Shown in pieces: positions 1,114 through 57,690 of a stretch of DNA of 64,000 nucleotides. The stretch lies in the IMG/VR virus record IMGVR_UViG_3300028186_000155, one strand, 5' to 3'. The position numbers and the translations under genes are program-made. Each line of letters starts with the position of its first letter. Position 1 is the stretch's first letter. This DNA is from a virus. Taxonomy: Duplodnaviria; Caudoviricetes. The notes under the pieces are model-generated. The model was not told the DNA's origin, ran no database searches, and worked only from the letters and a program-made list of their open reading frames with translations.

Positions 1114-1124
1114 GTTTACAGTTT
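1114..1124 (-). promoter_or_regulatory. AAACTGTAAAC motif copy 1 (putative phage promoter)
   Basis: exact 11-mer, essentially intergenic, followed by SD-occluding hairpin. Confidence 0.65.
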
Positions 1125-1303
1125 TAGTGACCGGCTTCACGCATGTCATCCACTGCACGCTGCACAGCTGCGATGAAAGAGTAGTTTTCAGTGTTCCACG
1201 ACCAGAAGTTAGTCATGCCCGGATGTGAAATTGTCCGGGTGCGGAAACAAACCGTGAGTTCGTAGGTTGCCAGCTGGATAACTGCCCATTCGTATTTGCT
1301 CAT
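1124..1303 (-). CDS. 59-aa hypothetical, paralog of 1300..1485 (not in ORF track)
   Basis: MSKYEWAVIQLATYELTVCFRTRTISHPGMTNFWSWNT...; ATGA-coupled. Confidence 0.75.
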   Translation of the reverse strand: MSKYEWAVIQLATYELTVCFRTRTISHPGMTNFWSWNTENYSFIAAVQRAVDDMREAGH

Positions 1304-1485
1304 GTGCGGCGTTCCTCGACGTATGCAACGGCTTCGACCATGGCTTCGATTAGTCCCGCAGTATCAATCGAATTCCACGTCCAATAACGGGTGTGGCCGG
1401 GGCATTTGATGGTGCCCATAGCGAAGTTGATATACATGCCGTATTTCATGGCCTGCGCCAATGCCCAATTCCCATCGTAAATCAT
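1300..1485 (-). CDS. 61-aa hypothetical
   Basis: ATGA-coupled; shares WA..Q...Y.....F...TI..PG....W.WN with neighbour. Confidence 0.75.
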   Translation of the reverse strand: MIYDGNWALAQAMKYGMYINFAMGTIKCPGHTRYWTWNSIDTAGLIEAMVEAVAYVEERRT

Positions 1486-2360
1486 TTATCTTCCTCAACT
1501 GGCTCGCTGAATATGAGGGTGTACCCTGTGTATTCATTGTTAGTCAAATCAAGCAGCGGCATAAAGAACGGCGAATCGCAAACCTGCCAGCTAACCACCT
1601 TCGTGGTTTTGATACCGACAATTCCATGACGCAAAACCATGTCGGCAAAAGCGCTAGGTTTTAGCAGGGTCAGCAGTTCGGTATTGTTGGCAAATGGAAT
1701 GTATTTGCGCAGTGCAAACGACGGGCGTTTCTCTTCCAACAACAGCGGAATTTCCGAAGCGACATTGACGCTCAGGCGCAGGCCGTGGCGCGTGTGGAAC
1801 TCTTCGAAGTCTTCCGGTTCGTCATAGGCGCCCGGCTCGCCTTCCAAACGGTTTTTGTTAGGCTCCAGCCATTTAATCCCGTCAAAATATACCGAAAACA
1901 TCCCATCGGTAAACGTGCTGGTGTCACGGCCAAGGCCAAAGATTTCATGATCACCCAGCATGACCGACGCGCTGTGCGGATACCCTTTCGGATCGAGGAC
2001 CACCTTGGCTTCGGTTTTCACCTGATTCAGAATAACTTGAACGTCGGACAAAAACGTGGCCCACAATTGGTCAAAATTGAGGTTGGTTTCCGCACTCTTG
2101 GTCAGGATTCCGAATAGCGCGCTGGTCGTCATTTCCTCTGGCAGTTCTTTACACCCTTCGACAAACGCGGTACATCGCTCGCGGTTTGCCGGAACTTCCA
2201 ACCACGTAACTTTTACGCCGTTGAGTTCCATGGTCACAGGCGGCAAATAACCTTGCTGTCGTTCATCGTGGGGCCACGGGCTTCTGATGCTGAAGCCGTT
2301 GGCAATCAAACCCTCGATAAGGTTCACCCGGTGCCGCGTTACAATTTGAGTGCTCGACAT
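1482..2360 (-). CDS. hypothetical protein, family A (cf. 8674, 9489)
   Basis: start MSSTQ at TAATG overlap; terminal segments resemble paralogs. Confidence 0.75.
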   Translation of the reverse strand: MSSTQIVTRHRVNLIEGLIANGFSIRSPWPHDERQQGYLPPVTMELNGVKVTWLEVPANRERCTAFVEGCKELPEEMTTSALFGILTKSAETNLNFDQLWATFLSDVQVILNQVKTEAKVVLDPKGYPHSASVMLGDHEIFGLGRDTSTFTDGMFSVYFDGIKWLEPNKNRLEGEPGAYDEPEDFEEFHTRHGLRLSVNVASEIPLLLEEKRPSFALRKYIPFANNTELLTLLKPSAFADMVLRHGIVGIKTTKVVSWQVCDSPFFMPLLDLTNNEYTGYTLIFSEPVEEDK

Positions 2361-2671
2361 TATTTTTGAATCCTTCCGTGGCCATAAGTGCTGTACTGTT
2401 CGAACAAATCGGCGTCCTGTTTCCCACGCGATTTCAAATTCAGTGATTCCGATTCGCCCTCGCAACTCATGCCACTTTTGCCGAAATTGCAGAACCCTGC
2501 GCTGATGGCGCCGCCCGGACTCATGTCGCTGTATCTGTCGCGCAGCATTACGCGCTTCGACGCTTCACACATGTCGGCATGGGTCAGGTATTTCGGGAAC
2601 ATCACAGGGACTTCGAATTCGTCACCCTGTCTGTTGATTGCCTTGAAAACGATGTATTTGAACGCACTCAT
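2360..2671 (-). CDS. small phage protein, family B
   Basis: KY..F...LTHAD...SAGFC...C.GESESL.L.SRG motif shared with 50196 and, more weakly, 12456. Confidence 0.8.
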   Translation of the reverse strand: MSAFKYIVFKAINRQGDEFEVPVMFPKYLTHADMCEASKRVMLRDRYSDMSPGGAISAGFCNFGKSGMSCEGESESLNLKSRGKQDADLFEQYSTYGHGRIQK

Positions 2672-2672
2672 T

Positions 2673-2987
2673 TTAATTGCTGCTCCGTGCTGTGATGCGG
2701 ATGGTTTGGCGTTTCAGGTCAATCAAATTGTCTCGCAGGCTATCGCGCTCGGTGGTCAGCAGGTTGATACGGCGGGTGTGCTGATCCATCGTCTTTTCCA
2801 CGAAATCAATCAGGTAAAGCTGCGCTTCCAATTCGGTGGCGAACGCTACCTGTTTGGTGGCCGTGTTGTTGTTCCATGCACGCCAGCCACCGCCTTCGAA
2901 ATATTGCGGAATGAACATGTCTTTTTCGCTGATGCCGGGGGCTGGTACGCGGGCAAAAACACGGAACGGAAATTCTGGTTTATTCAT
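2673..2987 (-). CDS. hypothetical protein
   Basis: tiles operon; C-terminal coiled coil. Confidence 0.7.
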   Translation of the reverse strand: MNKPEFPFRVFARVPAPGISEKDMFIPQYFEGGGWRAWNNNTATKQVAFATELEAQLYLIDFVEKTMDQHTRRINLLTTERDSLRDNLIDLKRQTIRITARSSN

Positions 2988-3390
2988 CTTTAGAAATACC
3001 TTTCAAGCGGAACACTGCACGACTGCCGTCAGGTTTGGTGCAGACTGTGCGATATGGGTTTTCCTGATCCGCATAGCTAACGTTGCGGAAACCTTCCTGA
3101 ATCCAGCCTTTTTCAAGGCACAGGCGCTGGGCCTCGAAACGTTCGGCCCAAAGCACACGCCGCTCGTAACGATCTTTACCGTTTACTGGTGGTGGAATAT
3201 CGTGCAGGATGAAATTTTCTTCCTCGATACGTTCGCGCTCTTCACGCTTGGCTTTAACCACAGCATCGCGGATTGCAGCGCTCTCGGCACTCTCTGCTTT
3301 TTCCTTGGCCTTCACGCCCTTATCTTGATAGGGATATTTGCCGTCACAACCAGCCAGCAAAACCAGTGCAAACACCACCAAATATTTCAT
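2980..3390 (-). CDS. lipoprotein paralog 3
   Basis: MKYLVVFALVLLAGC lipobox; AQRLC...YRTVC. Confidence 0.8.
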   Translation of the reverse strand: MKYLVVFALVLLAGCDGKYPYQDKGVKAKEKAESAESAAIRDAVVKAKREERERIEEENFILHDIPPPVNGKDRYERRVLWAERFEAQRLCLEKGWIQEGFRNVSYADQENPYRTVCTKPDGSRAVFRLKGISKDE

Positions 3391-3647
3391 TGCTGGCCAT
3401 TCCTTTTCAGGTAGATAACGGTGCCATCTTTCTGGCGACAAACGGCGCGGTAGCTTTCTGGCCCGCCGCTGCGCAGGTAGTTGCTGGTTTCGAACAGCAT
3501 GCCCATACGCTGGCAGATGCCTTGGGCTTCCCATTTCGCATCCCAATTCAGGCGCGTTTCTTTGGATTTATCAACGCCTCGCGAAGGTCGATCAAGGGCA
3601 TCGCAGCCAGTCAGCAACAGTGCGGCAACCACCATCAAATATTTCAT
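3387..3647 (-). CDS. lipoprotein paralog 2
   Basis: MKYLMVVAALLLTGC lipobox; AQGIC...YRAVC. Confidence 0.8.
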   Translation of the reverse strand: MKYLMVVAALLLTGCDALDRPSRGVDKSKETRLNWDAKWEAQGICQRMGMLFETSNYLRSGGPESYRAVCRQKDGTVIYLKRNGQQ

Positions 3648-3955
3648 TCTGCCACCTCGAATTGTTCCACCGGCTGATTTTCAAGCATACAGGTGGCGCG
3701 GGGTTTCATGTCGTCAACGCCCGGCACCAAACCGATGTAAACCATGTCACGATCAGCGCAAATTTTCTGTGCCTTCAGCGTGCGTTCAAACTGGCCCTTG
3801 CGGTATTCTTGACGCTCCGCCACATAGCGTTGGGCTGCTGCAATTCGGTCGGCGCGTTTTTGGTCACGATCTACCATGCTTTGATATTCTTTTTCAGCGC
3901 CCGAATCACAACCAACCAGAACCAGTGCGGCCATCACGGCCATCAGAATTTTCAT
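3644..3955 (-). CDS. lipoprotein paralog 1
   Basis: MKILMAVMAALVLVGC lipobox; AQKIC...RATC. Confidence 0.8.
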   Translation of the reverse strand: MKILMAVMAALVLVGCDSGAEKEYQSMVDRDQKRADRIAAAQRYVAERQEYRKGQFERTLKAQKICADRDMVYIGLVPGVDDMKPRATCMLENQPVEQFEVAE

Positions 3956-3972
3956 TGTACCTAAATCCTTGA

Positions 3973-4015
3973 AGGTGCCCACACCACGCAGGCACCTGTT
4001 TATCGTTTACAGTTT
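3973..4015 (-). promoter_or_regulatory. AAACTGTAAAC motif copy 2 (4005..4015) plus downstream 10-bp hairpin
   Basis: exact 11-mer overlapping the stop; AGGTGCCTGC/GTGGGCACCT stem before SD AAGGA. Confidence 0.65.
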
Positions 4016-4247
4016 ATTTGTCGCGGTAGCGAGCGTCACGGTCACGCACGAAGCAACGCGCACGGCGCCATGCATCTTGCGCCAGTTCACCAATCAACAT
4101 CACGAACACGAACAGGCCCATAAAGAACATGAAAAGCGGGGTCCACCATGCACGCCCGCCCGGTGGATAATGGTCGTTGCGCGTGTCGTACACAAACCAA
4201 AACGCGTAGGCCAACCACGCCCCTACAATCAGCAAAAGGAAAATCAT
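4014..4247 (-). CDS. small Trp-rich membrane protein (2 TM)
   Basis: two hydrophobic segments; resembles 6322..6525. Confidence 0.7.
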   Translation of the reverse strand: MIFLLLIVGAWLAYAFWFVYDTRNDHYPPGGRAWWTPLFMFFMGLFVFVMLIGELAQDAWRRARCFVRDRDARYRDK

Positions 4248-5614
4248 TCGAAATCTCCCATGTCGTCATCGTCATGATCCACATCGTCAATCAAAACGTG
4301 CGGGATGAAACGTTCGTTGCTGGTGCCCAAAACCGGTTCGTCAAATTCACGAATACACAGTGTGGCAGCCGACGCTTCACGCAGCGAACGGTAATCGGTT
4401 GCACGATCCGGGCACATGAACATGCCGACGATGAAACTGTTACGGCCATCGACCTTGTACGGCGCTTTATATTCCTGATAAACCACATCAGAACCGCCGT
4501 AAATTCCATCGGTCGAGAACTGGTGTTCACCGTTGGCGCGATAGATCACGATGTTGTTGGACATGCGACCGATCACAGGCTTTTGCACATACGCATTTTT
4601 GCCCACAAAACGATCCGGTTTCATGTAAGTGCGCAGCACTGGAACCGTCGCATATTTGTCCGCGAAATTCTGATCGTTTTCCATCAGGTAAGTGACGTAG
4701 GCCCAAATGCCTTTGTTGGACGTAAACCAACGCCACGCCGGTTCCATGATAGTGACGTTACGCGCCCAGTTTTCCCACTGCTGATAGGCAATCGGGCAGG
4801 CCTCGACCATTTCTTCCCACGGCACCAGCGCGAAGATAACCGACAACGGCGTGTCGCCGTATTTCCACGGGTTTTCGCGGTCGGTCAGATCGAACTCGAT
4901 ATCCTTGCTCGAAATGAACAGGCAATCGTTTTCCTCGCCCATGATTTGCGCCACGACTTCCGAAGTGGCTTGCACCTCGAAACTTTCGTCGTCAAACACC
5001 ACAGCCGCCGTGCCGGGAATCTCACCCATTTCCGCAAACAGATCGGATGCCAGCGGGAAATAGGAATTCAACTGCAATTCCGAATCGCCGGTCACAGCTA
5101 CGCACACTTCGTTTTGCAACGAAACGGATTCCAGCAGCATGGTCGGGGTATCGCCGTTAAATTCGTAGATACCTTCGATCTTTTCCGTGACTGGGTTCAT
5201 CACGGCGTCAAAGCGACCGTAGATCGACTGGCGCGCCGAACTGTTGTCGCGATAGGTCCATTTTGCGTAGTCGATGAAATACGGGTGCTTGCGCAGGAAA
5301 TCGCAGCCCATATATTCCATGATGGTGCTTTCGGATTCGTTGAACAGGTGGCCCACAGCCTCGACCAGCATTGCGTAAGCGGCTTCAAACGTGAGTTCAA
5401 TATCGCGGCACGAACTCAGGTTGAAATTGTAGACCGGCAGGTTGTGTTTGTTGTTCATGGGGAACGAGAAATAATCGCGAACCGTCTGATAAAATTCTGC
5501 GTCGGCTTCCGCTTCTGGCTTCGGCATTTCGCGCCAGAATGCTTGAGTCCATGGCAGTTCGTTAACCATGAAATCGTTGAGTTCGAAAGATACTTCGTGA
5601 TACGTGCAATGCAT
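4244..5614 (-). CDS. glutathionylspermidine synthase-like ATP-grasp ligase (YgiC/YjfC family)
   Basis: IYGRFD, IYEFNGDTPT.L.ES, PWE, EPAW....SNKG, KPVIGR...N, VYQEY, IRE, RFIPH. Confidence 0.9.
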   Translation of the reverse strand: MHCTYHEVSFELNDFMVNELPWTQAFWREMPKPEAEADAEFYQTVRDYFSFPMNNKHNLPVYNFNLSSCRDIELTFEAAYAMLVEAVGHLFNESESTIMEYMGCDFLRKHPYFIDYAKWTYRDNSSARQSIYGRFDAVMNPVTEKIEGIYEFNGDTPTMLLESVSLQNEVCVAVTGDSELQLNSYFPLASDLFAEMGEIPGTAAVVFDDESFEVQATSEVVAQIMGEENDCLFISSKDIEFDLTDRENPWKYGDTPLSVIFALVPWEEMVEACPIAYQQWENWARNVTIMEPAWRWFTSNKGIWAYVTYLMENDQNFADKYATVPVLRTYMKPDRFVGKNAYVQKPVIGRMSNNIVIYRANGEHQFSTDGIYGGSDVVYQEYKAPYKVDGRNSFIVGMFMCPDRATDYRSLREASAATLCIREFDEPVLGTSNERFIPHVLIDDVDHDDDDMGDFE

Positions 5615-5653
5615 GATCTATTCCTTGAGAAATTGGAAGGGTGAAACGGGGAA

Positions 5654-6325
5654 TTAACCCCCGCCACCACCTTTGGCACCTGCACCACCGCCACCGCTGT
5701 GCATTGCGGACTTCACGCGGGCTTGCGTAGCCTGCTGTACCGTGGCTGGGGCACTGCTAGGGCTGGCGCGCCATTGCGATACGCGATTCTGCATATTCTG
5801 GCGATAATTCGGGCTGGCCATAACCGCATTGCGATTGCTGTTCATCAGGGCGCTGGTGTAAATGGCAGAACCACCATTCCGGCATTTACGGCGTTCGTCG
5901 CGATTGTCACAACGTTGCGTGGTCATCGGCGCATGCTGCTGTTGATATTGCTGATAGCCGCCCGATTGATTCATGGATTTTGCCAACGCGTAACCGCCCA
6001 GCGCACCGAGTGCCGCACCGCCCACCATTGGCCAGATGGAATTGCTGCTGGTGCCGTCCGCTTCTTCACGCACAACGTTCAAGACTTTTTCGCCTTTTTC
6101 GTTGACGGAATAATACACGTCTTTTACCGACGGATCTTTAGATTGAAGTTCACGCAACGCGGCCTGTGCGTCTTCCTGATCAGCAGCCATTTGCTTGCGC
6201 GTTGCTTCTGATGCCTGTTCGTCAACATACGCCTTTTCTTCATCGGGATAGGCCCCGCTATCGTCACACCCGCCCAGCAAAGCCAATGCTGCGGCGCCTG
6301 CGGCCAACAGAACTTTGTTGCTCAA
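5654..6325 (-). CDS. YgiB/DUF1190-like lipoprotein with Gly-rich tail
   Basis: LLGGC lipobox, WPMVGG..GYAL segment, GGGGAGAKGGGGG end; next to the GspS-like gene as in ygiBC. Confidence 0.7.
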   Translation of the reverse strand: MSNKVLLAAGAAALALLGGCDDSGAYPDEEKAYVDEQASEATRKQMAADQEDAQAALRELQSKDPSVKDVYYSVNEKGEKVLNVVREEADGTSSNSIWPMVGGAALGALGGYALAKSMNQSGGYQQYQQQHAPMTTQRCDNRDERRKCRNGGSAIYTSALMNSNRNAVMASPNYRQNMQNRVSQWRASPSSAPATVQQATQARVKSAMHSGGGGAGAKGGGGG

Positions 6326-6525
6326 TTCTTTTTCCTCAGTTTTTTAACCAGATTGTCTTTAATGATCCACACGTCCATCAGGAACATTGTGGGCTGCCAA
6401 ATGTACATGGCGAGAAAAACAATGGGCCACGCCCACCATTTCACATCGTGGTTGATCCAGCTGTACCGAAAACCCCACGCGGCCCAGCAGGTCCACAGAA
6501 CGATCAGCCACCAATACCACGCCAT
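6322..6525 (-). CDS. small Trp-rich membrane protein
   Basis: MAWYWWLIVLW...; SD AAGGG. Confidence 0.7.
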   Translation of the reverse strand: MAWYWWLIVLWTCWAAWGFRYSWINHDVKWWAWPIVFLAMYIWQPTMFLMDVWIIKDNLVKKLRKKN

Positions 6526-6527
6526 GC

Positions 6528-6872
6528 CTAATCCCTTTTGATTTTGGTGAACTGGATAGCTTCCAAATCGACTGCACCACAATATTTGTGCAGAAAATCG
6601 TAAGCCCGTTGGTCGATCAGCATAACCTCGGATTGCGGCCAAGTGATTACATCCAACGGCTCGCGAACTAGATCGTTAACCGAGACTGCGATTTCTACCG
6701 GCTCTTCGTCACAAACGGAAATGTAACGGTAACGTTCGTAGCTATCGCATTTCAGTAAGACGCCCAAATATTCAAACTCGGGATCTACTTCGAGCGGCTT
6801 CCCTTCAGCATAGGACGCCAGTATCCCGGCAGCCTCGACCAACTTAATGTGGCCTTCGTGCAAAACGTTCAT
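6528..6872 (-). CDS. hypothetical protein
   Basis: AGGA SD; tiles operon. Confidence 0.7.
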   Translation of the reverse strand: MNVLHEGHIKLVEAAGILASYAEGKPLEVDPEFEYLGVLLKCDSYERYRYISVCDEEPVEIAVSVNDLVREPLDVITWPQSEVMLIDQRAYDFLHKYCGAVDLEAIQFTKIKRD

Positions 6873-6884
6873 TCCACGTTTCCT

Positions 6885-6895
6885 GTTTACAGTTT
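6885..6895 (-). promoter_or_regulatory. AAACTGTAAAC motif copy 3
   Basis: exact 11-mer containing the upstream stop, directly before the SD. Confidence 0.55.
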
Positions 6896-7852
6896 GTGGA
6901 TCAGCGCCAGCAACTGCGCGTTGTGCTCGGGGCCTTGCGGAACTTTGATGATTTCGCCGTTTTCGTTCTGCCCTTTTTCGTAGCGGTAGGTAACGGTTTC
7001 ATCCGGGTAGAATGAGCACGACCACCAAACGTTAGTGTTTTCTTCATAGGGCAGCATCAGGCCGACGTAGCCCTCATGATCCAGACTGGGCATTACACGC
7101 TTACGCGAATGCACGGCCAGATTTTCGCGCACGTATTCGAAGAATTCACGCGCCAACCTCAACGAATCGGGCAACGGTGCTGGCAGGTCTTCGAACCAAC
7201 CGTCTTCGAGTTTTCCGTAGGCCACATATTCAGCTTCAACACCGGCCCAAACTTTCTGGAACCACTCTTCTTTTTCGCGTGCTTGCTGCTGCATCGACAA
7301 TTCCATCAATTCAGCTTCGGCGCGTTCAATGTCGGCCTCTGTTTGGTGCGGTAAACCAGCCATCACCATTTCGCCACAAACCGGGCAGTGGTGCATGCCC
7401 ATTGGTTCACCGCTCAGCATTTCCGGGTGCCCTTGGCAATGGCCCTCAACGTTGCGGTGTACGCGGTAAATGAACGTGCGTACCGAACCCTTGGCCGAGC
7501 CTTCGAAAATGCGGTGCGACACGTGGTATTGCGTCCAGTCGTGCGGTAGTGCGTGGGTAAACGCACCGATCAAACGCATTTGCAAATCCTGCAATTCCGG
7601 TGTGAATTTGCCACCCAGTTTGAACACGTAGGTCATGCATGCATTGGGCAGGCCTTCGATATCCATCCAGTAATCTTTGCCGCCCTTGTAGCTAAACGGC
7701 ACGCGGCTTTCTTCCATCACGATTGCATCAAACGTGACCTGCAATGTGGAGCCGTCAAACTCGGGGTTTTGGTAGCCCCACAGGGTTTGGCGCTCTTCGC
7801 CCTTGAAAATCATTTGGTCGATGATCGAAGAATTGAAATCGCGAAATTCCAT
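6887..7852 (-). CDS. multi-domain hypothetical with Zn-ribbon-like HCPVCG
   Basis: GAGGA SD before MEFRDF; C-terminal domain resembles 48220. Confidence 0.75.
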   Translation of the reverse strand: MEFRDFNSSIIDQMIFKGEERQTLWGYQNPEFDGSTLQVTFDAIVMEESRVPFSYKGGKDYWMDIEGLPNACMTYVFKLGGKFTPELQDLQMRLIGAFTHALPHDWTQYHVSHRIFEGSAKGSVRTFIYRVHRNVEGHCQGHPEMLSGEPMGMHHCPVCGEMVMAGLPHQTEADIERAEAELMELSMQQQAREKEEWFQKVWAGVEAEYVAYGKLEDGWFEDLPAPLPDSLRLAREFFEYVRENLAVHSRKRVMPSLDHEGYVGLMLPYEENTNVWWSCSFYPDETVTYRYEKGQNENGEIIKVPQGPEHNAQLLALIHKL

Positions 7853-7862
7853 TGGTAGATCC

Positions 7863-8096
7863 TCAGAAAATTTGAACATTCTCGATTTGACGGGATTCGT
7901 TATTGCCACCGGGACCGTCGTTAGAGAAACATTTGCGAGACTGCGCGTTGAGGTAGTCCGCCGGAGTCTTAAATTTCAGGCCCGGCCCCACGTCTTCGCT
8001 CGCAAATTCTCGGTGAAACGAATACTCCAACTGCCGTAGCCGTTTGCAGATTTTGAACGTCACCAGCACATGACGGAAAGGGGAAGGTGCTTTCAT
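7863..8096 (-). CDS. hypothetical protein (77 aa)
   Basis: ATGA-coupled to the 8093 stop. Confidence 0.5.
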   Translation of the reverse strand: MKAPSPFRHVLVTFKICKRLRQLEYSFHREFASEDVGPGLKFKTPADYLNAQSRKCFSNDGPGGNNESRQIENVQIF

Positions 8097-8677
8097 TCGT
8101 GGGGGTCTTCCAGCGTGGAGTACGCAACGTTCCAAAGGTTGCCGTTGGAACCTTCAACCGACGCCCGGAATTTCTCGGGGGAGAACGCCACTCTATGATC
8201 AACGTCAACCCAAATTTTACGCAGAATACCCAGCTTGTATTTGTCACCCGATTTGAATTTGACGGGCATGCCTTCTGTTGGGCGGAACACTGGTTTCTGC
8301 ACAGCGACCACCTGCCCCATCGGATCGGCAGCATCAAGCGTTTTCGGCATGGCCAGAATTGCACGCAATTCATTTTCGAATTCTTTGCCGTCAATTTCGT
8401 TGACGTACCTATCAAGTTCGATTGCGCTACTGAACCACGAACCGTTTTCCAGCAGACGCAGCACCACACGTTCCAGAGCATCGGCGCGGGCATCGGATGG
8501 CAACAGCTGCTCACCGATTTTCAGGCCGTTTTCTTCGGCCTCGATACAGGCGTCCAGCCACGCACTGATTTGGCTGTTCATCGACCGGTGGTTGCGGTTG
8601 GCCAATCGCTGGATTTTGTCGCGCATTTCACCGTCATACATGCGCACGTTGAATTTAGCTACGACAGGCCGTTTCAT
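8093..8677 (-). CDS. Arc-like ribbon-helix-helix DNA-binding protein
   Basis: KFNVRM...MRDKIQRLANRNHRSMNSQI matches the Arc/AmrZ pattern. Confidence 0.85.
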   Translation of the reverse strand: MKRPVVAKFNVRMYDGEMRDKIQRLANRNHRSMNSQISAWLDACIEAEENGLKIGEQLLPSDARADALERVVLRLLENGSWFSSAIELDRYVNEIDGKEFENELRAILAMPKTLDAADPMGQVVAVQKPVFRPTEGMPVKFKSGDKYKLGILRKIWVDVDHRVAFSPEKFRASVEGSNGNLWNVAYSTLEDPHE

Positions 8678-9489
8678 TCGGTAACTCGCTGGTTGAGGCC
8701 GCTGGAACGGCGCAGTTTGATTTTGAGATATTTACGGGTTTCTGGCTGCGGGTTGAACAGCAGGTGTGCCGCTTCGTCATGCGAAATGATTTGCACCGGA
8801 GCCGCTACCACTCGCGCACTAGCCAGCCCATATTTGAAGAGCAACGGGCCGAACTGATGCAGTGGGCCGGTGGTGTAAATTTTGTCGTTGTCGATTATCG
8901 TAACCTGATCTTTGGACCTGTAGCGTTTCGGGAATTGGCCGCTGTCAGTTTGCAGGATTTCGATTACTTGACCAGCCGACGTAATTTCGTGCTCTTCATC
9001 ACCATATTCCATGAACGATTGGCCTTCATGGTAAAAGATAGTGAAAATCGGATCGCCTTTTGCTTCGGCCATCAGGCGGAACGACACGTGCCATGCGTTG
9101 TACCAATCGGTAGTGGCACGCATGTGCGCAGACCCGACCTTGCAGGGTTTGTCCGTTGGATGCAGACGCACGCCGAGCGATTCAATGCGATTTTCTACAT
9201 CGGTAATCAGTGCTCTGAAATCGTCACGCTCAGCCTTCATGGTCGCCAAGCACTTTTCGATATATTCCAGCACTTCCTGATCAGGGACCGTATCAAAGAA
9301 CGTCTTGGCCTCAGCGACCGAGCCATCCAACATGATGCGCATGGTGTTACCGTATGACGTGACGTTGATTTTCAGCCGGTCAAACACAAACGAATAACCG
9401 GTGCGGGTAACGAAACCGAGGTCCAGCAATTTCTGACCCAGTTCTGCACGGGAACCCAAGTTAGTTTGTTTCTGCTTTGCAAGCTTCAT
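8674..9489 (-). CDS. hypothetical protein, family A
   Basis: tandem paralog of 9489..10316. Confidence 0.8.
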   Translation of the reverse strand: MKLAKQKQTNLGSRAELGQKLLDLGFVTRTGYSFVFDRLKINVTSYGNTMRIMLDGSVAEAKTFFDTVPDQEVLEYIEKCLATMKAERDDFRALITDVENRIESLGVRLHPTDKPCKVGSAHMRATTDWYNAWHVSFRLMAEAKGDPIFTIFYHEGQSFMEYGDEEHEITSAGQVIEILQTDSGQFPKRYRSKDQVTIIDNDKIYTTGPLHQFGPLLFKYGLASARVVAAPVQIISHDEAAHLLFNPQPETRKYLKIKLRRSSGLNQRVTE

Positions 9490-10316
9490 TAAATGTCATC
9501 CATCACTTTGTCGGCTAAGGCTTTGACTTCCATGAACATGCCCCGGTTGACCGGCATGCGGAAACGATATTCGTAATACTCTTTTGTGACTGGTTTGCCA
9601 CCCAGCAACAACTCGTTGAGCGCTTTGTCTTCCGATTGGCGAATCACAACGCCTTCCCGCTTGTGGCAACCGACCAAACCGAATTGGAAAAACAGCGGTT
9701 TGAAATCGCAGGCCGGGCGGTACGAGAACATCGATTTACCTTTGAACACTAGCGGCGACGATTCGTCTGGCCAGTCATCGAAGTCCTGACCCAACAGACG
9801 TTTGGTAACGTCTTGTTCGCAGGTGACTACCTGATCATAGAAAGCATGATCAAACAGGAAATCTTTGCCACGAATCGACATAGAAAACATTTCCTCTTCA
9901 CCGTTCATGTAACCACGGCAGAAGAAACCTAGAGTGAACGGCCAGTTGGTGGTTTTCTTGAACTTACCAATTACGCCCATGGTGCGCGCCCAGTATTGGA
10001 CTTCGACCGTGAGCGCCACAAATTCCTCAAGGCGTTTATTGAAAATCGCCATTTCGCTATCGATGTAGGCCACGATTTCATCGATTGGCACCGGGACACG
10101 GCGCTGGGTATTGTGATTGTAGCTGTCCCAATCCTTGCAGACTTCGATTTCGACCACGACGCCGTATTGGTTGATACGCACCGACAAATCGGTATCGGTT
10201 TTATGCTGCCACAGGTAGCCGCCGTCCGAATCGTCTTTATCGATTTTGAAGCCGTGACCACGCAGGCAATCGTTAAGCTTTTTCGAGCGAGTCATAGCGG
10301 GGTGTTGGTAGCTCAT
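9489..10316 (-). CDS. hypothetical protein, family A
   Basis: F.PL.F..GL ... LL...P.T..Y C-terminal motif. Confidence 0.8.
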   Translation of the reverse strand: MSYQHPAMTRSKKLNDCLRGHGFKIDKDDSDGGYLWQHKTDTDLSVRINQYGVVVEIEVCKDWDSYNHNTQRRVPVPIDEIVAYIDSEMAIFNKRLEEFVALTVEVQYWARTMGVIGKFKKTTNWPFTLGFFCRGYMNGEEEMFSMSIRGKDFLFDHAFYDQVVTCEQDVTKRLLGQDFDDWPDESSPLVFKGKSMFSYRPACDFKPLFFQFGLVGCHKREGVVIRQSEDKALNELLLGGKPVTKEYYEYRFRMPVNRGMFMEVKALADKVMDDI

Positions 10317-10855
10317 TTCTTCAGATCCTTGACGTATTTGTTGACGGCACGTTTTGCAGCAGCCTTGAGTTTCGGCACGGAGTCAAACCGCTTATGCCTT
10401 GCGCCTTTTACCGAACTTGTGCGGAGCGTATAAACATCCCGGCTTTCAGCACCCATGCTAACCACTTCGATTCCGTCGATCAGGATGCCCGCAATGTCTG
10501 GACACTCTGCTGGTGCGTCCAGTCGAAACGTATGGCCCGGCACCGTGACGTTTTCCAGAATCTGCTGGCGCACTTCAGCGAAATTTTGAATGATGGAATC
10601 AGCTTCGAGTTTTGCATCATCCAGCACCCGGCAAATAGCAGGCACAGATTCATCGGTAAATGTTCGTTGCACCAGCCCTTCCAGAACAATCGGGGATTTG
10701 TCCGCATTTTGTGGATCGCGGAAAATCTCCAACGCACCATCGAAATAAGCGGCGTGTACGACTGGCAGTTTCTTGTGGTGCGTAAAACCCAACTTGGATC
10801 GGGCATGCTTGACCACACGCTCGAAATCCTTCTGCGTGTAGCCGGTCATTTGCAC
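10313..10855 (-). CDS. hypothetical protein
   Basis: tiles operon. Confidence 0.7.
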   Translation of the reverse strand: MQMTGYTQKDFERVVKHARSKLGFTHHKKLPVVHAAYFDGALEIFRDPQNADKSPIVLEGLVQRTFTDESVPAICRVLDDAKLEADSIIQNFAEVRQQILENVTVPGHTFRLDAPAECPDIAGILIDGIEVVSMGAESRDVYTLRTSSVKGARHKRFDSVPKLKAAAKRAVNKYVKDLKK

Positions 10856-11499
10856 ATGTCCTTGTAGGAAATCACATCAGAGTTTTTGCCGTTGTCCATA
10901 AAGAACGAATAGGCCTCAGCACGCGGCAGCGGGTAGCGCCCCGGCTCTGCATCTTTCACGTTGACTTTCGGGTGCGTGCCATCACTCATGTGGGCCAAAA
11001 CCGATACGCCATTGTTGGGCATATCCACAAAGGTTTTTTCTTCCATGTGGCGCAGATCATACAGGCGCCAGTTGAAAATGGTGAAATAGCGATACGAATA
11101 TTCGCGATTGCCCTTGACCGTCCGATCACCCACTTTGAAGATGCATTGCGTTTCGTGCGAACCGTATTTGTTCCAGTCCTGCACCACTTCGCCACGGTAG
11201 GCCCAGCCGATGGCCCCCAGCAGCGCCAGCAGGCCCACGAAGCACGCAAAGATCCAAGCGCGTACCATCCACTTGCCAAACGCGATACGGCTTTTGTCGG
11301 CCTTCGCCTGCGCGGTGCCGAGGCTGGCGACGTGTTCTGCCTCGCTGGCGAGATTTGCCGCCAACACCTCGATTTCTTCCGGCGTTAACGGAGGCAGCGC
11401 CCGGTCCGCTGCGTCTGGGACGTGCGGTGGCAATTCTTGATCTTTGTTCAGTTCGTCATTGATTTTCGACATGTCCAGCCCTTCCCCTGTGTGTCCCAC
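10846..11499 (-). CDS. single-pass membrane protein
   Basis: TM segment AWIFACFVGLLALLGAIGWAY; start may be MSKIN. Confidence 0.75.
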   Translation of the reverse strand: MGHTGEGLDMSKINDELNKDQELPPHVPDAADRALPPLTPEEIEVLAANLASEAEHVASLGTAQAKADKSRIAFGKWMVRAWIFACFVGLLALLGAIGWAYRGEVVQDWNKYGSHETQCIFKVGDRTVKGNREYSYRYFTIFNWRLYDLRHMEEKTFVDMPNNGVSVLAHMSDGTHPKVNVKDAEPGRYPLPRAEAYSFFMDNGKNSDVISYKDMCK

Positions 11500-11508
11500 A
11501 ATTGATCC

Positions 11509-12057: not shown

Positions 12058-12075
12058 TTAGGCTTTCCTTGTACC

Positions 12076-12453: not shown

Positions 12454-12455
12454 GT

Positions 12456-12779
12456 TTACTCCCGCGTTTTGAACTCGGTTTTATTGAGAATGATGGTAGC
12501 CTTATCCTTGTTTACAGTTTGGGTCACAGGCTGCTGCACAGGGGCCGGTGCGTCCACGTCTTCGGCAGAACGAATCAGGATTTCGTCACGCAGGCCACGC
12601 GAACCGAACTCGATGCCACCAATGGTCAGCGAGGATTGGCAGGTGTAGAAAATGGTTTGACCTACGGCCCAGCCAGCGGCCACGATTGGCCATGGGAATT
12701 TCACCTGCTCCAGATCCACTTTCGGATCAAACATCATCACAGCTTCTTTGCCTTCGATTTTGACAACAACGTATTTCAT
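12456..12779 (-). CDS. small phage protein, divergent family B
   Basis: MKYVV...VAAGW...S.T....SRG..D. Confidence 0.7.
   Translation of the reverse strand: MKYVVVKIEGKEAVMMFDPKVDLEQVKFPWPIVAAGWAVGQTIFYTCQSSLTIGGIEFGSRGLRDEILIRSAEDVDAPAPVQQPVTQTVNKDKATIILNKTEFKTRE
12510..12520 (-). promoter_or_regulatory. AAACTGTAAAC motif copy 4
   Basis: exact 11-mer 56 nt upstream of ATG 12453, inside the 3' end of the previous gene. Confidence 0.55.
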
Positions 12780-12786
12780 GTGGACC

Positions 12787-13020: not shown

Positions 13021-13039
13021 GGTTGTTTCTCCAGACGTT

Positions 13040-13771: not shown

Positions 13772-13857
13772 TGTTCCTCCTTAGAGGCTGCCCCACATGC
13801 CGAACAGCCGATCCATTTCGCCCAGTGCATTCCCCTGCTGCACCGGCACCGCCTGTT

Positions 13858-14052
13858 TTACGGCAGGTGTTCCCACTCGGCTAGGATTAACCGGACTTTT
13901 AGATTGCGCCTTAGCACCTTGCATTCTTTCGGTGTGAACTGCCGGGCGCGTAATCTGCTTTTGCATGATAAAATCTTAGTCTCTTGAATTGCGAAAATAT
14001 ATTCGCCCGATGGCAACCGGGCTACATAGCGTTTACAGTTTTCCCTGTCCAC
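13858..14052 (-). CDS. small hypothetical, family C domain
   Basis: YVARLPSGEYI...ARQF; overlaps an alternative ORF 13781..13966. Confidence 0.5.
   Translation of the reverse strand: MDRENCKRYVARLPSGEYIFAIQETKILSCKSRLRARQFTPKECKVLRRNLKVRLILAEWEHLP
14031..14041 (-). promoter_or_regulatory. AAACTGTAAAC motif copy 5
   Basis: exact 11-mer containing the stop of 14033..14281. Confidence 0.55.
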
Positions 14053-14988: not shown

Positions 14989-15006
14989 TTTGGTTCACCT
15001 CTTGGG

Positions 15007-17585: not shown

Positions 17586-17606
17586 TTTTCATTGTACCTT
17601 TGGAGT

Positions 17607-17627: not shown

Positions 17628-17637
17628 AAACGATTAA

Positions 17638-18387: not shown

Positions 18388-18401
18388 CAGTTTTCCTCTG
18401 C

Positions 18402-19297: not shown

Positions 19298-19353
19298 CTA
19301 GATACAGGGCGGCCCCCTTTGGACCGCTCGCCTGTACCTAGTGTTTACAGTTT
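19298..19353 (-). promoter_or_regulatory. AAACTGTAAAC motif copy 6 (19343..19353) plus SD-occluding hairpin
   Basis: CTAGGTACAGG/CCTGTATCTAG 11-bp stem plus 7-bp inner stem; 3' arm includes the AG of SD AGGA. Confidence 0.7.
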
Positions 19354-34847: not shown

Positions 34848-35208
34848 ATTGAATTCCTTGAAGTTCCTGTAAGAGACGTATGTGGACGGTTTCGAGTCGT
34901 TCGCCACATATATCGTTTACAGTTTTCAGGAAGTCTTGCAATTCATCCAGTACCGTGAGGATTTCCACCGACAGGTCGGACCAGCGTTGATTGCCGCCCA
35001 GCGTCAATTCCAATTCAGGCCTACGTGTTAGGCCGGGGATAGAATGGCGCACGTGAGTTTCGTCAACATCGATTTGAGAAACGGCGAAACTTTCACGCGA
35101 TACGTGCACCTTGTGGCGCAGAACGGCAACGCGGCGGAACAGTTCCTGTGCGTAGGCCTGCCGTTCCATTGGCATCATGTCCTCGATTTCTTTCCGGCTG
35201 TATCTCAC
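34828..35208 (-). CDS. hypothetical protein
   Basis: GTGA-coupled. Confidence 0.65.
   Translation of the reverse strand: MRYSRKEIEDMMPMERQAYAQELFRRVAVLRHKVHVSRESFAVSQIDVDETHVRHSIPGLTRRPELELTLGGNQRWSDLSVEILTVLDELQDFLKTVNDICGERLETVHIRLLQELQGIQYGKAKS
34915..34925 (-). promoter_or_regulatory. AAACTGTAAAC motif copy 7
   Basis: exact 11-mer 67 nt upstream of the HTH gene; shares downstream GATA with copy 2. Confidence 0.55.
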
Positions 35209-40361: not shown

Positions 40362-40803
40362 CGCTGCTTCCTTCTGGTTTACAGTTTTCTTCAGTGCGGC
40401 GAATCCGCGTAATTATCGGAGTGATTCGCTCGCGTTGTTGCGCACGCCGCTTGTGGACCGTTGACAGAATAATTTCCTCTGACAATTTTAGGTGCCAGTC
40501 AGTGCAAGGCCAGCGGTCATGGTCCGCGTGATCGTTGCGGGGTACGCCGTATTGGTTGATTGTGCCGGAATGGCGGCCCTTATCGTCAAAGGCGCGCCAG
40601 CGGATGTTTTCCGGGGGAATGTGCCCCAGTGCCACGGCCAGTCGGAACGCGTCAAACGCCAGCGTGTTCGACAAGTGGATTTTGGCCTCGGTGTCGGGTC
40701 CGTAGTAGCGAGCAGGCAAAGAAATCGCCTCGGAATCCGAAAGTGCGTAGGCCCCGTGTTCCAGATCGGGGGAGCCGGGTAGGTGTAGATACAGAGTGAT
40801 CAC
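40339..40803 (-). CDS. hypothetical protein
   Basis: GGAG SD, GTG start. Confidence 0.65.
   Translation of the reverse strand: MITLYLHLPGSPDLEHGAYALSDSEAISLPARYYGPDTEAKIHLSNTLAFDAFRLAVALGHIPPENIRWRAFDDKGRHSGTINQYGVPRNDHADHDRWPCTDWHLKLSEEIILSTVHKRRAQQRERITPIITRIRRTEENCKPEGSSDENPSSD
40377..40387 (-). promoter_or_regulatory. AAACTGTAAAC motif copy 8
   Basis: exact 11-mer immediately before the SD of 40361. Confidence 0.55.
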
Positions 40804-53613: not shown

Positions 53614-54213
53614 TTATTGCGCAGCAGGTGCCGCTGGTTTACGCGATGGCAGATCGTACAGGCCTTGGTCACGCCCGGTGCGGAACGATTCTTCGGCTTT
53701 GTCGTTCATCAGTGGCGCGTAATCGTCTTGCGTGCCCTTACAGCCGATTTTCAGGTCGGCCAGATCAAAGGTGTTGATCACCAGCTTGTTAGGCTGCTTA
53801 CCGCGATAGGTACACGATACCTGTTTGCGGTCGGTCATCATCTTTTCTTCACGCAGGAATTTCTCACGGCCCTGATCGATCAGGTTCACGATCTTTTCCG
53901 CCAGCGCGTTGGACGGCGCAATGTTGTTTTCTTGCAGGAACAGCATGGTAGCTTTCAGGCCATCAGCACCGGAACGCAGCTTGATTTGCTCGTTCACAGT
54001 TTTCTGGATATTTTCAACCGAAATATCCTGAACGCCGATTGCTTCTTTGATCTTCTGGCTGATGTTCGACAGCGTGGCCTTACGGCTGTTGTTCGCTGCG
54101 ACAATCCCCTCTTCCTGTGTCACCAACGTGTTGTTGATGTTCACAACCCAAACCAGACCGATTGCCAGCAGGCCGATCAACATCCACATGGGGCTAATTT
54201 TTGGTGCGGTCAA
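53614..54213 (-). CDS. LemA-like membrane-anchored helical protein
   Basis: N-terminal TM, NTLVTQEEGI.A, Y....PN.LV. Confidence 0.6.
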   Translation of the reverse strand: MTAPKISPMWMLIGLLAIGLVWVVNINNTLVTQEEGIVAANNSRKATLSNISQKIKEAIGVQDISVENIQKTVNEQIKLRSGADGLKATMLFLQENNIAPSNALAEKIVNLIDQGREKFLREEKMMTDRKQVSCTYRGKQPNKLVINTFDLADLKIGCKGTQDDYAPLMNDKAEESFRTGRDQGLYDLPSRKPAAPAAQ

Positions 54214-54243: not shown

Positions 54244-55329
54244 TTAGAAATAGCCGTGGCGTCGGTACATACCTCTGTAACCGGCAGACCAACGCTCACT
54301 CAGTTTGTTTACAGTTATCCAGACGATGGCAGCGATGGCAATCAACGACAGAACGATCAACCACATTGGCGGCGTATATTCGTCTTTGAGGAAATCGTAA
54401 CGGCCAAGGTCTTCACGCTGGAACAGCGCCAGCGAACCGTCGATAGAATCGATGATGGTTGGTACGCTGATAGGGCCTTTCTGTTGTATCAGCGCTTCGT
54501 GTGCGTTCACGAAAAGCGCGGTGGTGAAAGCGCGGCCACTTTTGTCAATCTTTTCGTCTGCCGACCGGCTGAATGCCCAAGCGTGAATCGTGCGGCATTC
54601 GTCGTTCACACCGAGGAACAAAACAGCATCGTTTTTCTTGCCACCATTCCACTTCGACGCCACGGCGTTGACGAACTGATTCCAGTTGGTTTTGGGGCCA
54701 ACCACAATCACGCTCACGTTAACCCCGTGCATTGGTCCCCAACGCTTCTGCGCCACCGACAAGAAATGCGACAGGCCGCGCTGATCCATGCAGGGCGTAT
54801 TCGAGAAACCGCGACTCACTTTGAAGCCCGAATAAATATGCGGATACGCAGGCAGCCAGCCTTGGTATTCCTCGGCAGACGTGCGATCAACCATCACCGA
54901 TTGGTCGCTAACGTTTTGGTAATTCATGAAACGCTGCGTGCTGGCGTATGGATCACCGATTTGCGCCTGCGAGTAAATGGCCGGGGCACGGATGGATTGC
55001 GACGTGTGTTCGCTGTAGTAATCGCCGTAATCGCTGATCACATCCCAGCGCCAGCGCGGGATTTCCCGGCTACACGTTTTGGTATTTCCGTGCGAGTCTT
55101 TGCCGCAGTCGTAATACTCGGTATCAGGATCGTAAACGCGCTGTTTCTTTGCGACAGATCCACTGATGATTTCCGTATCGGACGCCTGCCAATACATCGG
55201 CCCGTAATACAGCGCCAGACTGGCCGCAATGCCCGCCAAGAAACCGCAACCGGTGGCCGCCCAGTCCTTGACATGTAGGTTGCAGTAAACAGCAGCCAGC
55301 AACGCCACCGAAATATAAGCGTAGATCAT
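54244..55329 (-). CDS. membrane protein with TPM-like domain
   Basis: 2 N-terminal TM, WNGGKKNDAVLFLGV, C-terminal TM; next to LemA-like gene. Confidence 0.6.
   Translation of the reverse strand: MIYAYISVALLAAVYCNLHVKDWAATGCGFLAGIAASLALYYGPMYWQASDTEIISGSVAKKQRVYDPDTEYYDCGKDSHGNTKTCSREIPRWRWDVISDYGDYYSEHTSQSIRAPAIYSQAQIGDPYASTQRFMNYQNVSDQSVMVDRTSAEEYQGWLPAYPHIYSGFKVSRGFSNTPCMDQRGLSHFLSVAQKRWGPMHGVNVSVIVVGPKTNWNQFVNAVASKWNGGKKNDAVLFLGVNDECRTIHAWAFSRSADEKIDKSGRAFTTALFVNAHEALIQQKGPISVPTIIDSIDGSLALFQREDLGRYDFLKDEYTPPMWLIVLSLIAIAAIVWITVNKLSERWSAGYRGMYRRHGYF
54307..54317 (-). promoter_or_regulatory. motif variant TAACTGTAAAC
   Basis: 10/11 match, about 93 nt upstream of the LemA-like start. Confidence 0.4.
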
Positions 55330-55616
55330 TATGGTTGTCCCTTACTTTCCATGTGCGCAAGGCTCAGCTTAACTTCGGCCCATGGCATGAAAGTTGCGTC
55401 TTTCACGTCGGTGGAATCTTCCGGCATACGCACGATCAATTCGTAGCGGAACCCGTATTTGTCCGGGCAGTAACCGGCGATCAGGTTGTCGAAAACATCC
55501 GTGGAAAACATCGGAGGAAAACCTGCGTCGAGTAGCGCGTAGGCAATGGCGATGCAATCCGGGCCGGTCAGCAAGTCTTTTTCAATCGACCACGGCCACG
55601 CAAGATTCTCAATCAT
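55329..55616 (-). CDS. hypothetical protein (MIENL...)
   Basis: tiles operon. Confidence 0.65.
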   Translation of the reverse strand: MIENLAWPWSIEKDLLTGPDCIAIAYALLDAGFPPMFSTDVFDNLIAGYCPDKYGFRYELIVRMPEDSTDVKDATFMPWAEVKLSLAHMESKGQP

Positions 55617-56337
55617 TTTCATAGACCTTGAAATTTTCGTTGATGTAGCGAACGAAATCATAAATGCCTTCGTCGCCGTCGAATTCGATGTTGATCCAGT
55701 ATTCGTTCTGGTGTGAACCGTATTCCAGACACGGTTTAGATTTGGCGCGGCGTGCCAGTGCTTCGGGTTCTTGCGTGAACACGTGGTGCACCAGCCAATG
55801 GATCAGATCCGGGTGTGCGTGAACACCGCGAATTTCCAAACCAACTTTGTCACGCTGCACAATCGTTGGCCAGAATTGCGGGCGGCCATTTACCAGACGC
55901 TGTTCGATCAGTTTACGCGGGTACGCCATGTAACCATGCAGCGCCACGACTGGCACCCCACCGTCAACCTCGCGGTAGTCACCAACGGAGCGGCCCAATT
56001 CACAATCGAAAATGTGATTGTCTTCAGAGTAGGCAAGGCGATCAATCAGTTCCTCGCCAACACCGAGGCCACGGAAAATCGAATGGCATTGCTCGGTGAT
56101 TTCGTCGCCTTTTATGAAGTCGCGAACGTCGAACACTTTAGGCCCATAGGGTTCTGGCAAATTGTCATAGGCCACAACATCCATTTGCTCATAACCACCA
56201 ACAAACGCCACGTACCACCCAGTTTTGCGCTCGCTGTTCGGGTGGCCATAATACGCTTTGCACACGGTGCCTTGCGTGGTGGTTACGATGTAGTGGCCGT
56301 ATTCTTCAGGCTCACCAAATTTCCATTGGGCAATCAT
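55609..56337 (-). CDS. DUF551-like N-terminal domain protein
   Basis: W....PEE...YIVT...VVAY..LPEPY. Confidence 0.6.
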   Translation of the reverse strand: MIAQWKFGEPEEYGHYIVTTTQGTVCKAYYGHPNSERKTGWYVAFVGGYEQMDVVAYDNLPEPYGPKVFDVRDFIKGDEITEQCHSIFRGLGVGEELIDRLAYSEDNHIFDCELGRSVGDYREVDGGVPVVALHGYMAYPRKLIEQRLVNGRPQFWPTIVQRDKVGLEIRGVHAHPDLIHWLVHHVFTQEPEALARRAKSKPCLEYGSHQNEYWINIEFDGDEGIYDFVRYINENFKVYEND

Positions 56338-57125
56338 GGTTTCACCTCTTCAAACAGCAGGCCCTGTTCGGCCAGACAATCTTTGATTTGATCCAAGAAA
56401 ATACGGCGGGTAGTGTTGAACCTGTGATGAATATCCGGGTTGTGCGCAGCAGGCAGCTTGATGGTACGCGGCTCACGCTTTTCACGGGCGTGCACCATCG
56501 CCTTGTAAATTTCGCTAATGGCTTGCTTTGCGTGGTGTTTGGCATCCGCTTCGGATTGGTCGGAATTGCCTTCGAAATTTACGTCAGGTTCAGTGTCAAA
56601 GAACCGACCCAGCGCATTCAGCGCCGCACGTTCCATATCATCGGTGATTTGGTAGAGGAAAGGTGCATCCCATTCACGCTGCACAATATCGCCCGTGACG
56701 CCGGTCAGATTCTCTAGCTGCTGGTGCAGATCGTGCAGTTTGTCTTGCAGTTCATCAGCATGCGTTTTGATGATGCCTTTGGCCCGGATTTCGACAGCCT
56801 TTTCGAAGTTGGCAAAGTTGGCGCGGGCCAGCTTGTCTTCGTACATGCGATTGGCGAAATACGAACAGACTTTTTCGAAATCTGCGAACACAATTCGGCG
56901 GCCATTGAGCGTGATGCTGATTTGCATTGCGTCCGCGTCCCAGCCCGGCGTGTCCACAACTTCGCGCAGGTCGTCTTTCGACATGCCTTCAAGCAGCATG
57001 TGCGAAAGCCAAGTCGGGAAACCTTCGGCGTTACGGTCCAGATGCTTGTCAAAACTCAGGATTTCAAATTTGCCATTCTCATGGGCGATATCGATTGGCG
57101 ATTTGCTGCTGTCCTTGCTGCTCAT
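56334..57125 (-). CDS. hypothetical protein
   Basis: ATGA-coupled. Confidence 0.75.
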   Translation of the reverse strand: MSSKDSSKSPIDIAHENGKFEILSFDKHLDRNAEGFPTWLSHMLLEGMSKDDLREVVDTPGWDADAMQISITLNGRRIVFADFEKVCSYFANRMYEDKLARANFANFEKAVEIRAKGIIKTHADELQDKLHDLHQQLENLTGVTGDIVQREWDAPFLYQITDDMERAALNALGRFFDTEPDVNFEGNSDQSEADAKHHAKQAISEIYKAMVHAREKREPRTIKLPAAHNPDIHHRFNTTRRIFLDQIKDCLAEQGLLFEEVKP

Positions 57126-57655
57126 TTGAAGAGGGCCTGTAGTCGGAAATTTTGGTTAACCAGTCGGTTTGCGAACTGGTGATAGTCTGCTTCATCGAGG
57201 CAGGCATGGGCGATTAGGCACATGCGCTCCACGTCGTCGGCTACCATGACGCGGCGACCGCTGCCATGTGCCCACACGCTAAACATTTGGTTCACGTAGG
57301 AGTTGAATACGCGGCTCAATTCGTCAATTGCTGCGTAGCGTTTTGCCGGATCGACAGGCAGCCGGATTTCGGCGCCCATAAATTCGAATGACGGCAATTC
57401 TTTGCAGCGCATGAGATAGCCTTCCCACATGTACTGCACCGGCATAGGTTCGTAGGTGCCAGTAGTGTCACGGCGCCAGTTATGCACGGTCAGTTGCGCT
57501 TCGAAATCTTTGCGGAATTCTTCTTCACGTTCCGCCACACGCTTGCGCAGTTTGCCGATGATGCGTTGGCGCGCGTCTTCTTTCTTTTTCTCATGTGCCG
57601 CTTGTGCTGCGCGGTATTCTTCAGGGCTACCCAAAATGTCTTCGATTGTGCTCAC
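57122..57655 (-). CDS. hypothetical protein
   Basis: GAGGA SD, GTG start. Confidence 0.75.
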   Translation of the reverse strand: MSTIEDILGSPEEYRAAQAAHEKKKEDARQRIIGKLRKRVAEREEEFRKDFEAQLTVHNWRRDTTGTYEPMPVQYMWEGYLMRCKELPSFEFMGAEIRLPVDPAKRYAAIDELSRVFNSYVNQMFSVWAHGSGRRVMVADDVERMCLIAHACLDEADYHQFANRLVNQNFRLQALFK

Positions 57656-57679
57656 GACGTTTTCCTCAGTTTTTCCAAT

Positions 57680-57690
57680 GTTTACAGATT
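57680..57690 (-). promoter_or_regulatory. motif variant AATCTGTAAAC
   Basis: 10/11 match, between stop and SD. Confidence 0.5.

Follow-up and report, generated by a model that had tools for sequence, protein, structure and literature searches.

The late promoters of phage T4 carry a single A/T-rich box of 8 bp at -10 (TATAAATA) and no -35 element, and they are read by gp55 with gp33 and the gp45 clamp. Bacterial sigma70 promoters of the extended -10 type (TGnTATAAT), in which a TG lies upstream of an A/T-rich hexamer, do not need a -35 element either. The middle and late promoters of the small podovirus phiEco32 contain AATGTA centred at -11.5, which is read by the phage sigma gp36, a sigma70-family protein acting on the host core polymerase (PMC12276001). 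The present analysis concerns an oriented 11-mer, AAACTGTAAAC, that recurs near gene starts in a 64,000-nucleotide (nt) stretch of virus DNA (IMG/VR record IMGVR_UViG_3300028186_000155; the whole stretch is referred to as the window), and for which a sequence-only reading had proposed the role of a -10-only promoter for a phage sigma factor or RNA polymerase. This proposal is supported computationally by the sense placement of the motif, the lack of a second box, a conserved pyrimidine-purine (Y-R) step, copies in divergent gaps, conservation at orthologous places and an encoded sigma factor. The core AAAACTGTAAAC(A/G) is thus probably a phage-specific single-box promoter used by the host core polymerase together with a phage factor, which in turn is probably a sigma of 337 amino acids (aa). 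In mechanism it most resembles the T4 late and the phiEco32 gp36 promoters and is a member of neither family; the box is a member of the promoter class predicted in the Pseudomonas phage Lu11.

The window corresponds to bases 876-64875, in reverse complement, of a virus contig of 194,917 bases with an estimated completeness of about 63%. In a comparison with 50,697 phage records its DNA matched only the Pseudomonas phages HRDY3 (314 kb) and Lu11 (281 kb); it belongs to the genome of a Lu11/HRDY3-like jumbo phage of Pseudomonas. Its minus strand is the coding strand and carries nearly all of its genes. All eight exact copies of AAACTGTAAAC and both one-mismatch copies (TAACTGTAAAC and AATCTGTAAAC) that the sequence-only reading had listed were recovered at the positions given for them (Table 1), and its warning that a scan by eye may miss copies proved justified, as a third one-mismatch match (AAACTGTGAAC, at 53992) had escaped it. 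In agreement with the coding-strand bias described there, all 11 matches lie on the minus strand; 100 dinucleotide shuffles yielded a mean of 1.21 and at most 4 matches when up to one mismatch was allowed. In the ten copies listed, 12-93 nt separate the end of the box from the next start codon on the same strand, which accords with the claimed placement at gene junctions or within about 100 nt of a start. Boxes overlapping the upstream open reading frame (ORF) occur in all three frames, in line with the different reading frames noticed from the letters alone: in frame 0 the box provides the TAA stop codon of the upstream gene (6885 and 14031), in frame 1 it reads Thr-Val-Asn and in frame 2 Asn-Cys-Lys. 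This overlap in all frames indicates that the signal resides in the nucleic acid and not in the protein.

The count and positional analysis was extended to the whole contig, which contains 17 exact copies of AAACTGTAAAC and 31 copies with at most one mismatch. Twenty-nine of these 31 are unambiguously in sense orientation, two lie in mixed-strand neighbourhoods and none is clearly antisense. Their placement is not random: 20 are found within 100 nt upstream of a start, compared to a background of 16% (binomial p = 2e-9), and 22 within 130 nt upstream of gene starts. Among the 7- and 8-mers most enriched upstream of genes were ACTGTAAA and its sub-words, the only 7-mer ranked above being TAATTTA. 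A weight-matrix scan of the window returned no antisense match. It added two core-only CTGTAAA candidates (with the C at 51592 and 36415), which were excluded as sites because neither is conserved in HRDY3.

The promoter signal is not new, as it is already annotated as a prediction in Lu11. In the GenBank record of that phage (JQ768459 / NC_017972; Adriaenssens et al. 2012, J Virol 86:6369) the same box (CTGTAAATAnnnnGTA) is marked by 16-nt features labelled 'putative middle/late promoter'. The annotated feature at the first locus inspected was CTGTAAATAGGAAGTA, and in a 39-kb stretch of Lu11 eight annotated features, which span the C of the core to position +15, coincided exactly with independently found CTGTAAA sites. 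The prediction reportedly dates from 2012. The boxes of the two phages share the CTGTAAA core, the preceding A-tract, TA at +14/+15, the sense orientation and the distance to starts, and orthologous placements agree (the gap before primase and the gene after the sigma gene). At +7 they differ, with C predominating in the phage studied here (CTGTAAAC) and T in Lu11 (CTGTAAAT), where the boxes are themselves predictions only.

Nine of the ten window sites from the sequence-only reading recur at orthologous places in HRDY3, a phage for which no paper was found in the literature. Each of the six sites within the first 20 kb aligns with an HRDY3 box at the orthologous junction, amid diverging flanking DNA, and for three of the remaining four a box precedes the HRDY3 orthologue, with proteins that are merely 43-78% identical. 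ACTGTAAA was 3-7 times as frequent as its reversed control in Lu11 (37 vs 5 occurrences), HRDY3 (51 vs 7), Erwinia phage Y3 (19 vs 4), NCTB (27 vs 8) and PaBG (9 vs 3). The junction between the sigma and SSB genes carries the box in Erwinia phage Y3 (AAACTGTAAACA) and phage NCTB (AAACTGTAAAACA) and variants of it in PaBG and PhiXhv-16; in the phage studied here, a box likewise lies upstream of the SSB gene. Outside the window the box precedes not only SSB but also primase and thymidylate synthase, and the genes downstream of the window boxes code for a Nudix hydrolase, a homologue of a 'virion structural protein' and eight proteins of unknown function. The identity of the genes served is consistent with the 'middle/late' label used in Lu11.

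Alignment of 26 sites of the contig and 30 sites of Lu11 resulted in the consensus sequences AAAACTGTAAACA and aaaACTGTAAATA, respectively. Information was confined to positions -4 to +8 (AAAA-CTGTAAAYA, counted from the C of the core) and to +14/+15. A -35 element was absent from the aligned sites, all positions upstream of -4 having at most 0.4 bit, and no second box was found upstream or downstream of CTGTAAAYA in either set. That nothing is conserved at -35 or farther downstream speaks against both a two-box promoter and a box of the T4 MotA style upstream of a -10 element. Position +15 is an A at 20 of 26 sites here and at 25 of 30 in Lu11 (a purine at 25 and 28 sites, respectively), and +14 is usually a pyrimidine, which gives a Y-R step, mostly TA, 7 nt past the box. 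If TAAAYA is taken as -12 to -7 of a promoter, the conserved A falls at the transcription start (+1). This spacing between a -10 element and the start is the usual one and equals that of T4 late promoters. Several of the leaders predicted in this way (Table 1) open with a hairpin, the mean z score being -1.95 over the seven long leaders, with values of -3.4 at 1114 and -5.4 at 19343.

With the T4 late promoters the box has in common that it is a single A/T-rich 8-bp element at -10 without a -35 partner and with a start predicted about 6-7 nt downstream, and presumably also that a phage-made specificity factor acts on the host core polymerase. TGTAAACA agrees with TATAAATA at six of eight positions and differs at two; TGTAAAC(A/G) therefore departs from the T4 box, and TATAAATA itself occurs once per strand on the contig. 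The factors differ as well, since the candidate encoded here, a sigma of 337 aa, combines a complete sigma70-like region 1.2-2 with a C-terminal helical domain. The likeness to phiEco32 consists in a single -10-type box containing TGTA and in a reader that is there a phage sigma70-family protein on the host core polymerase, whereas the flanks of the box differ and phiEco32 is a small podovirus. Extended -10 promoters share the TG upstream of an A/T-rich hexamer and the dispensable -35 element, but in the box the TG abuts the hexamer, one base nearer than in TGn, and the hexamer lacks T at -7 and -10, the position equivalent to -7 being an A of high information content.

The sequence-only reading had suggested searching the rest of the genome for a gp55-like sigma factor or an RNA polymerase. 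This suggestion was borne out in part: the contig codes for a 337-aa phage sigma factor at a locus beyond the window (G000:C1:153975-154988), but it is not a gp55 relative by the searches run, and no RNA polymerase beta-subunit domain was found in the studied contig (G000), HRDY3 or Lu11. The protein matches Pfam Sigma70_r2 and phrog_17569 (E = 5e-139) and is 89.6% identical to its counterpart in HRDY3 and 72.8% to that in Lu11. Its matches via PHROG and PDB profiles were to general 'RNA polymerase sigma factor' families and to RpoD/SigA chains only, a comparison that did not include gp55 directly. An AlphaFold (AF2) model calculated from the single sequence was unusable (predicted local distance difference test score, pLDDT, of 38.6), and a model based on an alignment of 53 sequences (pLDDT 81.5) was used instead. 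In this model, residues 4-229 superpose on residues 112-448 of sigma70 (5yix_A; Z 15.3, root-mean-square deviation 3.4 Å over 218 residues), which comprise region 1.2, the non-conserved insert and region 2. A profile alignment to RpoD further indicated that the Y..WW motif is retained and aligned with the promoter-melting residues. Sigma70_r2 was detected in 51 of the 53 family members and Sigma70_r3 or Sigma70_r4 in none of the 53, even at E <= 1; the C-terminus holds a conserved three-helix domain (residues 282-333) whose fold was not resolved, so the absence of region 4 is unproven. Members of the family are present in 85 phage records, which include phages of Pseudomonas, Erwinia, Dickeya, Yersinia, Xanthomonas and Burkholderia, and the sigma of this clade has been called a divergent sigma70 in the PaBG paper (PMC7412058). 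A one-box promoter suits a sigma that has only region 2, a match that is circumstantial.

The promoter activity, start site and reading factor that we infer from these computed features could work together as follows. A phage protein, for which the 337-aa sigma is the leading candidate, would probably steer the host core RNA polymerase to a single -10-type element without a -35 partner, and placing TAAAYA at positions -12 to -7 would make the conserved purine 7 nt past the box the first transcribed base. In the window, the boxes would re-start transcription every few kb along a long one-directional array of small genes and produce transcripts with leaders of about 5-86 nt, several of them opening with a hairpin. 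Neither sigma70-type promoters (12 vs 14.7 in shuffles) nor intrinsic terminators (25 vs 27.9) were enriched in window positions 1-20000, which leaves the box as the only recurrent candidate signal there, and both were likewise not enriched around the sigma gene. Several observations weigh against this promoter mechanism. Outside the window, some contig copies sit inside genes and are separated from the next start by 230-780 nt. The boxes at 6885 and 40377 leave no more than 12 and 15 nt, respectively, to the called start, and a transcription start at +15 would leave leaders of 5-8 nt that lose part of the ribosome site. The A at -7 is atypical of recognition by the sigma70 family. The sigma is tied to the box by circumstantial evidence only and could instead read the second candidate box, TAATTTA; its own gene is preceded by boxes of this kind and has no convincing sigma70 promoter. 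Finally, no promoter study, transcript 5' ends or binding data were found in the literature for the Lu11 clade.

The dependence of the sigma gene on boxes of its own type, which something else must fire first, would be accounted for if the host sigma70 holoenzyme read the box directly, either as a weak extended -10-like promoter or with the help of a sigma70-remodelling phage protein, and no dedicated phage sigma were involved. The TG immediately before a TA-initial, A-rich hexamer (TAAACA) and the conservation of the box over phages of different hosts, whose sigma70 is conserved too, point in the same direction. Nevertheless, such a reading is unlikely, given that TAAAYA has an A at -7, where sigma70 nearly always needs a T, that the TG is one base out of the canonical TGn register with the -35 element absent, that the box was not among the matches of a simple sigma70 scan, and that a dedicated sigma has been retained by the clade in 85 phage records. 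The sequence-only reading had named an RNA-processing or a repressor site as the alternatives to a promoter, and both are disfavoured. Copies of the box occur in divergent gaps of 60-134 bp where same-strand transcripts should not arrive, which argues against RNA processing: the 84-bp gap before the thymidylate synthase gene on the contig holds a box with no same-strand gene upstream, and boxes are found both in the divergent gap before the primase gene on the contig and in the orthologous gap of Lu11 (60 bp). Quite unlikely for this reason is a motif acting at the RNA level, as a site at which a host or phage endoribonuclease cleaves polycistronic transcripts or affects their stability, often near a protective hairpin, even though the motif is strictly sense, A/U-rich, located at gene junctions, sometimes very near start codons (6885 and 40377) and often followed by a stable hairpin (mean z = -1.95 in seven leaders). 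The Y-R step fixed at +14/+15 and the resemblance to known -10-type boxes suit initiation better. We also know of no RNase with an 11-13-nt recognition site of this kind, which counts against the RNA-level explanation.

Hardly any probability is assigned to the motif being an operator for a DNA-binding phage regulator, be it a repressor or an activator, in place of a polymerase-recognition element. The phage encodes small helix-turn-helix (HTH) proteins, such as that at 37213-37815 of the window, and in Lu11 a 'putative transcriptional regulator' is annotated beside a box; however, the motif is asymmetric, single-copy and strictly gene-oriented, unlike typical dimer operators, and no other conserved promoter element accompanies it. 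A far-reaching extension of the phage-sigma promoter reading is doubtful: the clade sigma would read its single box as T4 gp55 reads its own, so that replication-coupled transcription lacking a -35 element would have arisen independently a second time and would extend to at least 85 jumbo phages (with Pseudomonas, Erwinia, Dickeya, Xanthomonas, Burkholderia and marine hosts), with the box doubling as the upstream stop codon and the start site at the foot of the leader hairpin. As a phage promoter, the box offers a transcription map for a 64-kb stretch of almost wholly unannotated small genes, with exact start sites predicted 7 nt past each copy. Together with the unusual sigma it would constitute a compact, host-independent promoter system across the clade, of relevance for the timing of gene expression and as an orthogonal expression part.

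Table 1. Candidate promoter boxes and related motif copies (window coordinates unless stated otherwise; the last column gives the situation in phage HRDY3).
Element	Position	Strand	Location	Predicted start	Predicted leader (nt)	HRDY3
Box AAACTGTAAAC	1114..1124	-	overlaps upstream stop; 70 nt before Nudix hydrolase gene 522-1043	~1106	63	box conserved
Box AAACTGTAAAC	4005..4015	-	49 nt before gene 3644-3955; followed by hairpin	~3997	42	TAACTGTAAAC at orthologous place
Box AAACTGTAAAC	6885..6895	-	TAA is upstream stop codon; 12 nt before called start 6872		5	AAACTGTAAAT
Box AAACTGTAAAC	12510..12520	-	in 3' end of ORF 12456-12779 (frame 1); 56 nt before gene 12076-12453		49	AAACTGTAAAT
Box AAACTGTAAAC	14031..14041	-	TAA is upstream stop codon; 64 nt before 61-aa ORF 13781-13966		57	box conserved
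Box AAACTGTAAAC	19343..19353	-	53 nt before gene 18402-19289; strong leader hairpin next		46	box and hairpin conserved
Box AAACTGTAAAC	34915..34925	-	within upstream ORF; 67 nt before gene 34590-34847		60	exact copy upstream of orthologue (protein identity just 50%)
Box AAACTGTAAAC	40377..40387	-	within ORF 40339-40803; 15 nt before gene 40053-40361		8	AAACTGTAAAT upstream of orthologue (protein identity 43%)
One-mismatch box TAACTGTAAAC	54307..54317	-	93 nt before gene 53614-54213 (PHROG 'virion structural protein')		86	TAACTGTAAAA upstream of orthologue
One-mismatch box AATCTGTAAAC	57680..57690	-	24 nt before gene 57122-57655; lineage-specific		17	box not found upstream of orthologue
One-mismatch copy AAACTGTGAAC	53992..54002	-	core mismatch; inside gene; 423 nt from next start			
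Second, weaker candidate box GTAATTTAATAG	1088..1099	-	sole window copy; between 1114 box and Nudix gene			
(G)TAATTTA(ATAG) copies	contig 84667, 94570, 102117, 108955, 134425, 136427, 183966					

The copy at 53992 reached a matrix score of 12.7, against at least 21.9 for the other ten sites; it is probably a chance match and was not counted as a promoter. The leader at 19290-19342 (minus strand, 53 nt), which follows the 19343 box, forms a hairpin of -29.9 kcal/mol (z = -5.4) that begins directly after the box. In HRDY3 this hairpin is retained with small changes in both arms. The Nudix hydrolase gene at 522-1043 (minus strand), whose product begins MEMQVELQLA, is the only gene of the window with both candidate boxes upstream.

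The second candidate box is represented on the contig by the oriented word (G)TAATTTA(ATAG), which lies 11-100 nt upstream of genes in the 70-140 kb block, including those of a PAAR protein and a protein of 1191 aa, and which may be a late promoter box. Eight of the ten copies of the 7-mer TAATTTAATAG are upstream of starts. At a length of 11 nt and with one mismatch, the motif was no commoner than its reversed control, and it was rejected as an established box. The opposite strand of the gap before the thymidylate synthase gene also holds the second candidate box. For two copies of the first box outside the window, at contig positions 136405 and 165017 (minus strand), a GC-rich hairpin and a T-run lie between the box and the gene start, no more than 15-30 nt past the box. 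This arrangement resembles an intrinsic terminator and could represent an attenuator, give rise to a very short RNA, or be a terminator of which transcripts started at the box omit the 5' arm.

Two other proteins were considered as sigma factors and rejected. The 367-aa conserved protein encoded outside the window at G000:C1:145664-146764 (minus strand; phrog_19229, unknown function), whose HRDY3 orthologue has a sub-threshold match to Sigma70_r2, lacked any sigma similarity in a PDB profile search and in hhalign comparison with the sigma family. The 200-aa protein at 37213-37815 of the window (minus strand) showed weak matches to Sigma70_r4 (E = 0.003) and Sigma70_r3 (E = 0.034) in the right order, but as a split sigma it was dismissed, since a profile of 34 sequences retrieved no sigma from the PDB and nothing from the PHROGs, and the Atlas gave generic HTH leads only. 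It is probably a phage transcription regulator with a conserved C-terminal HTH and not a sigma region 4. This HTH (GTVKELAAKYGKSLGEIRKLK...) is near-invariant among about 70 relatives, which are mostly encoded on contigs of jumbo-phage size.

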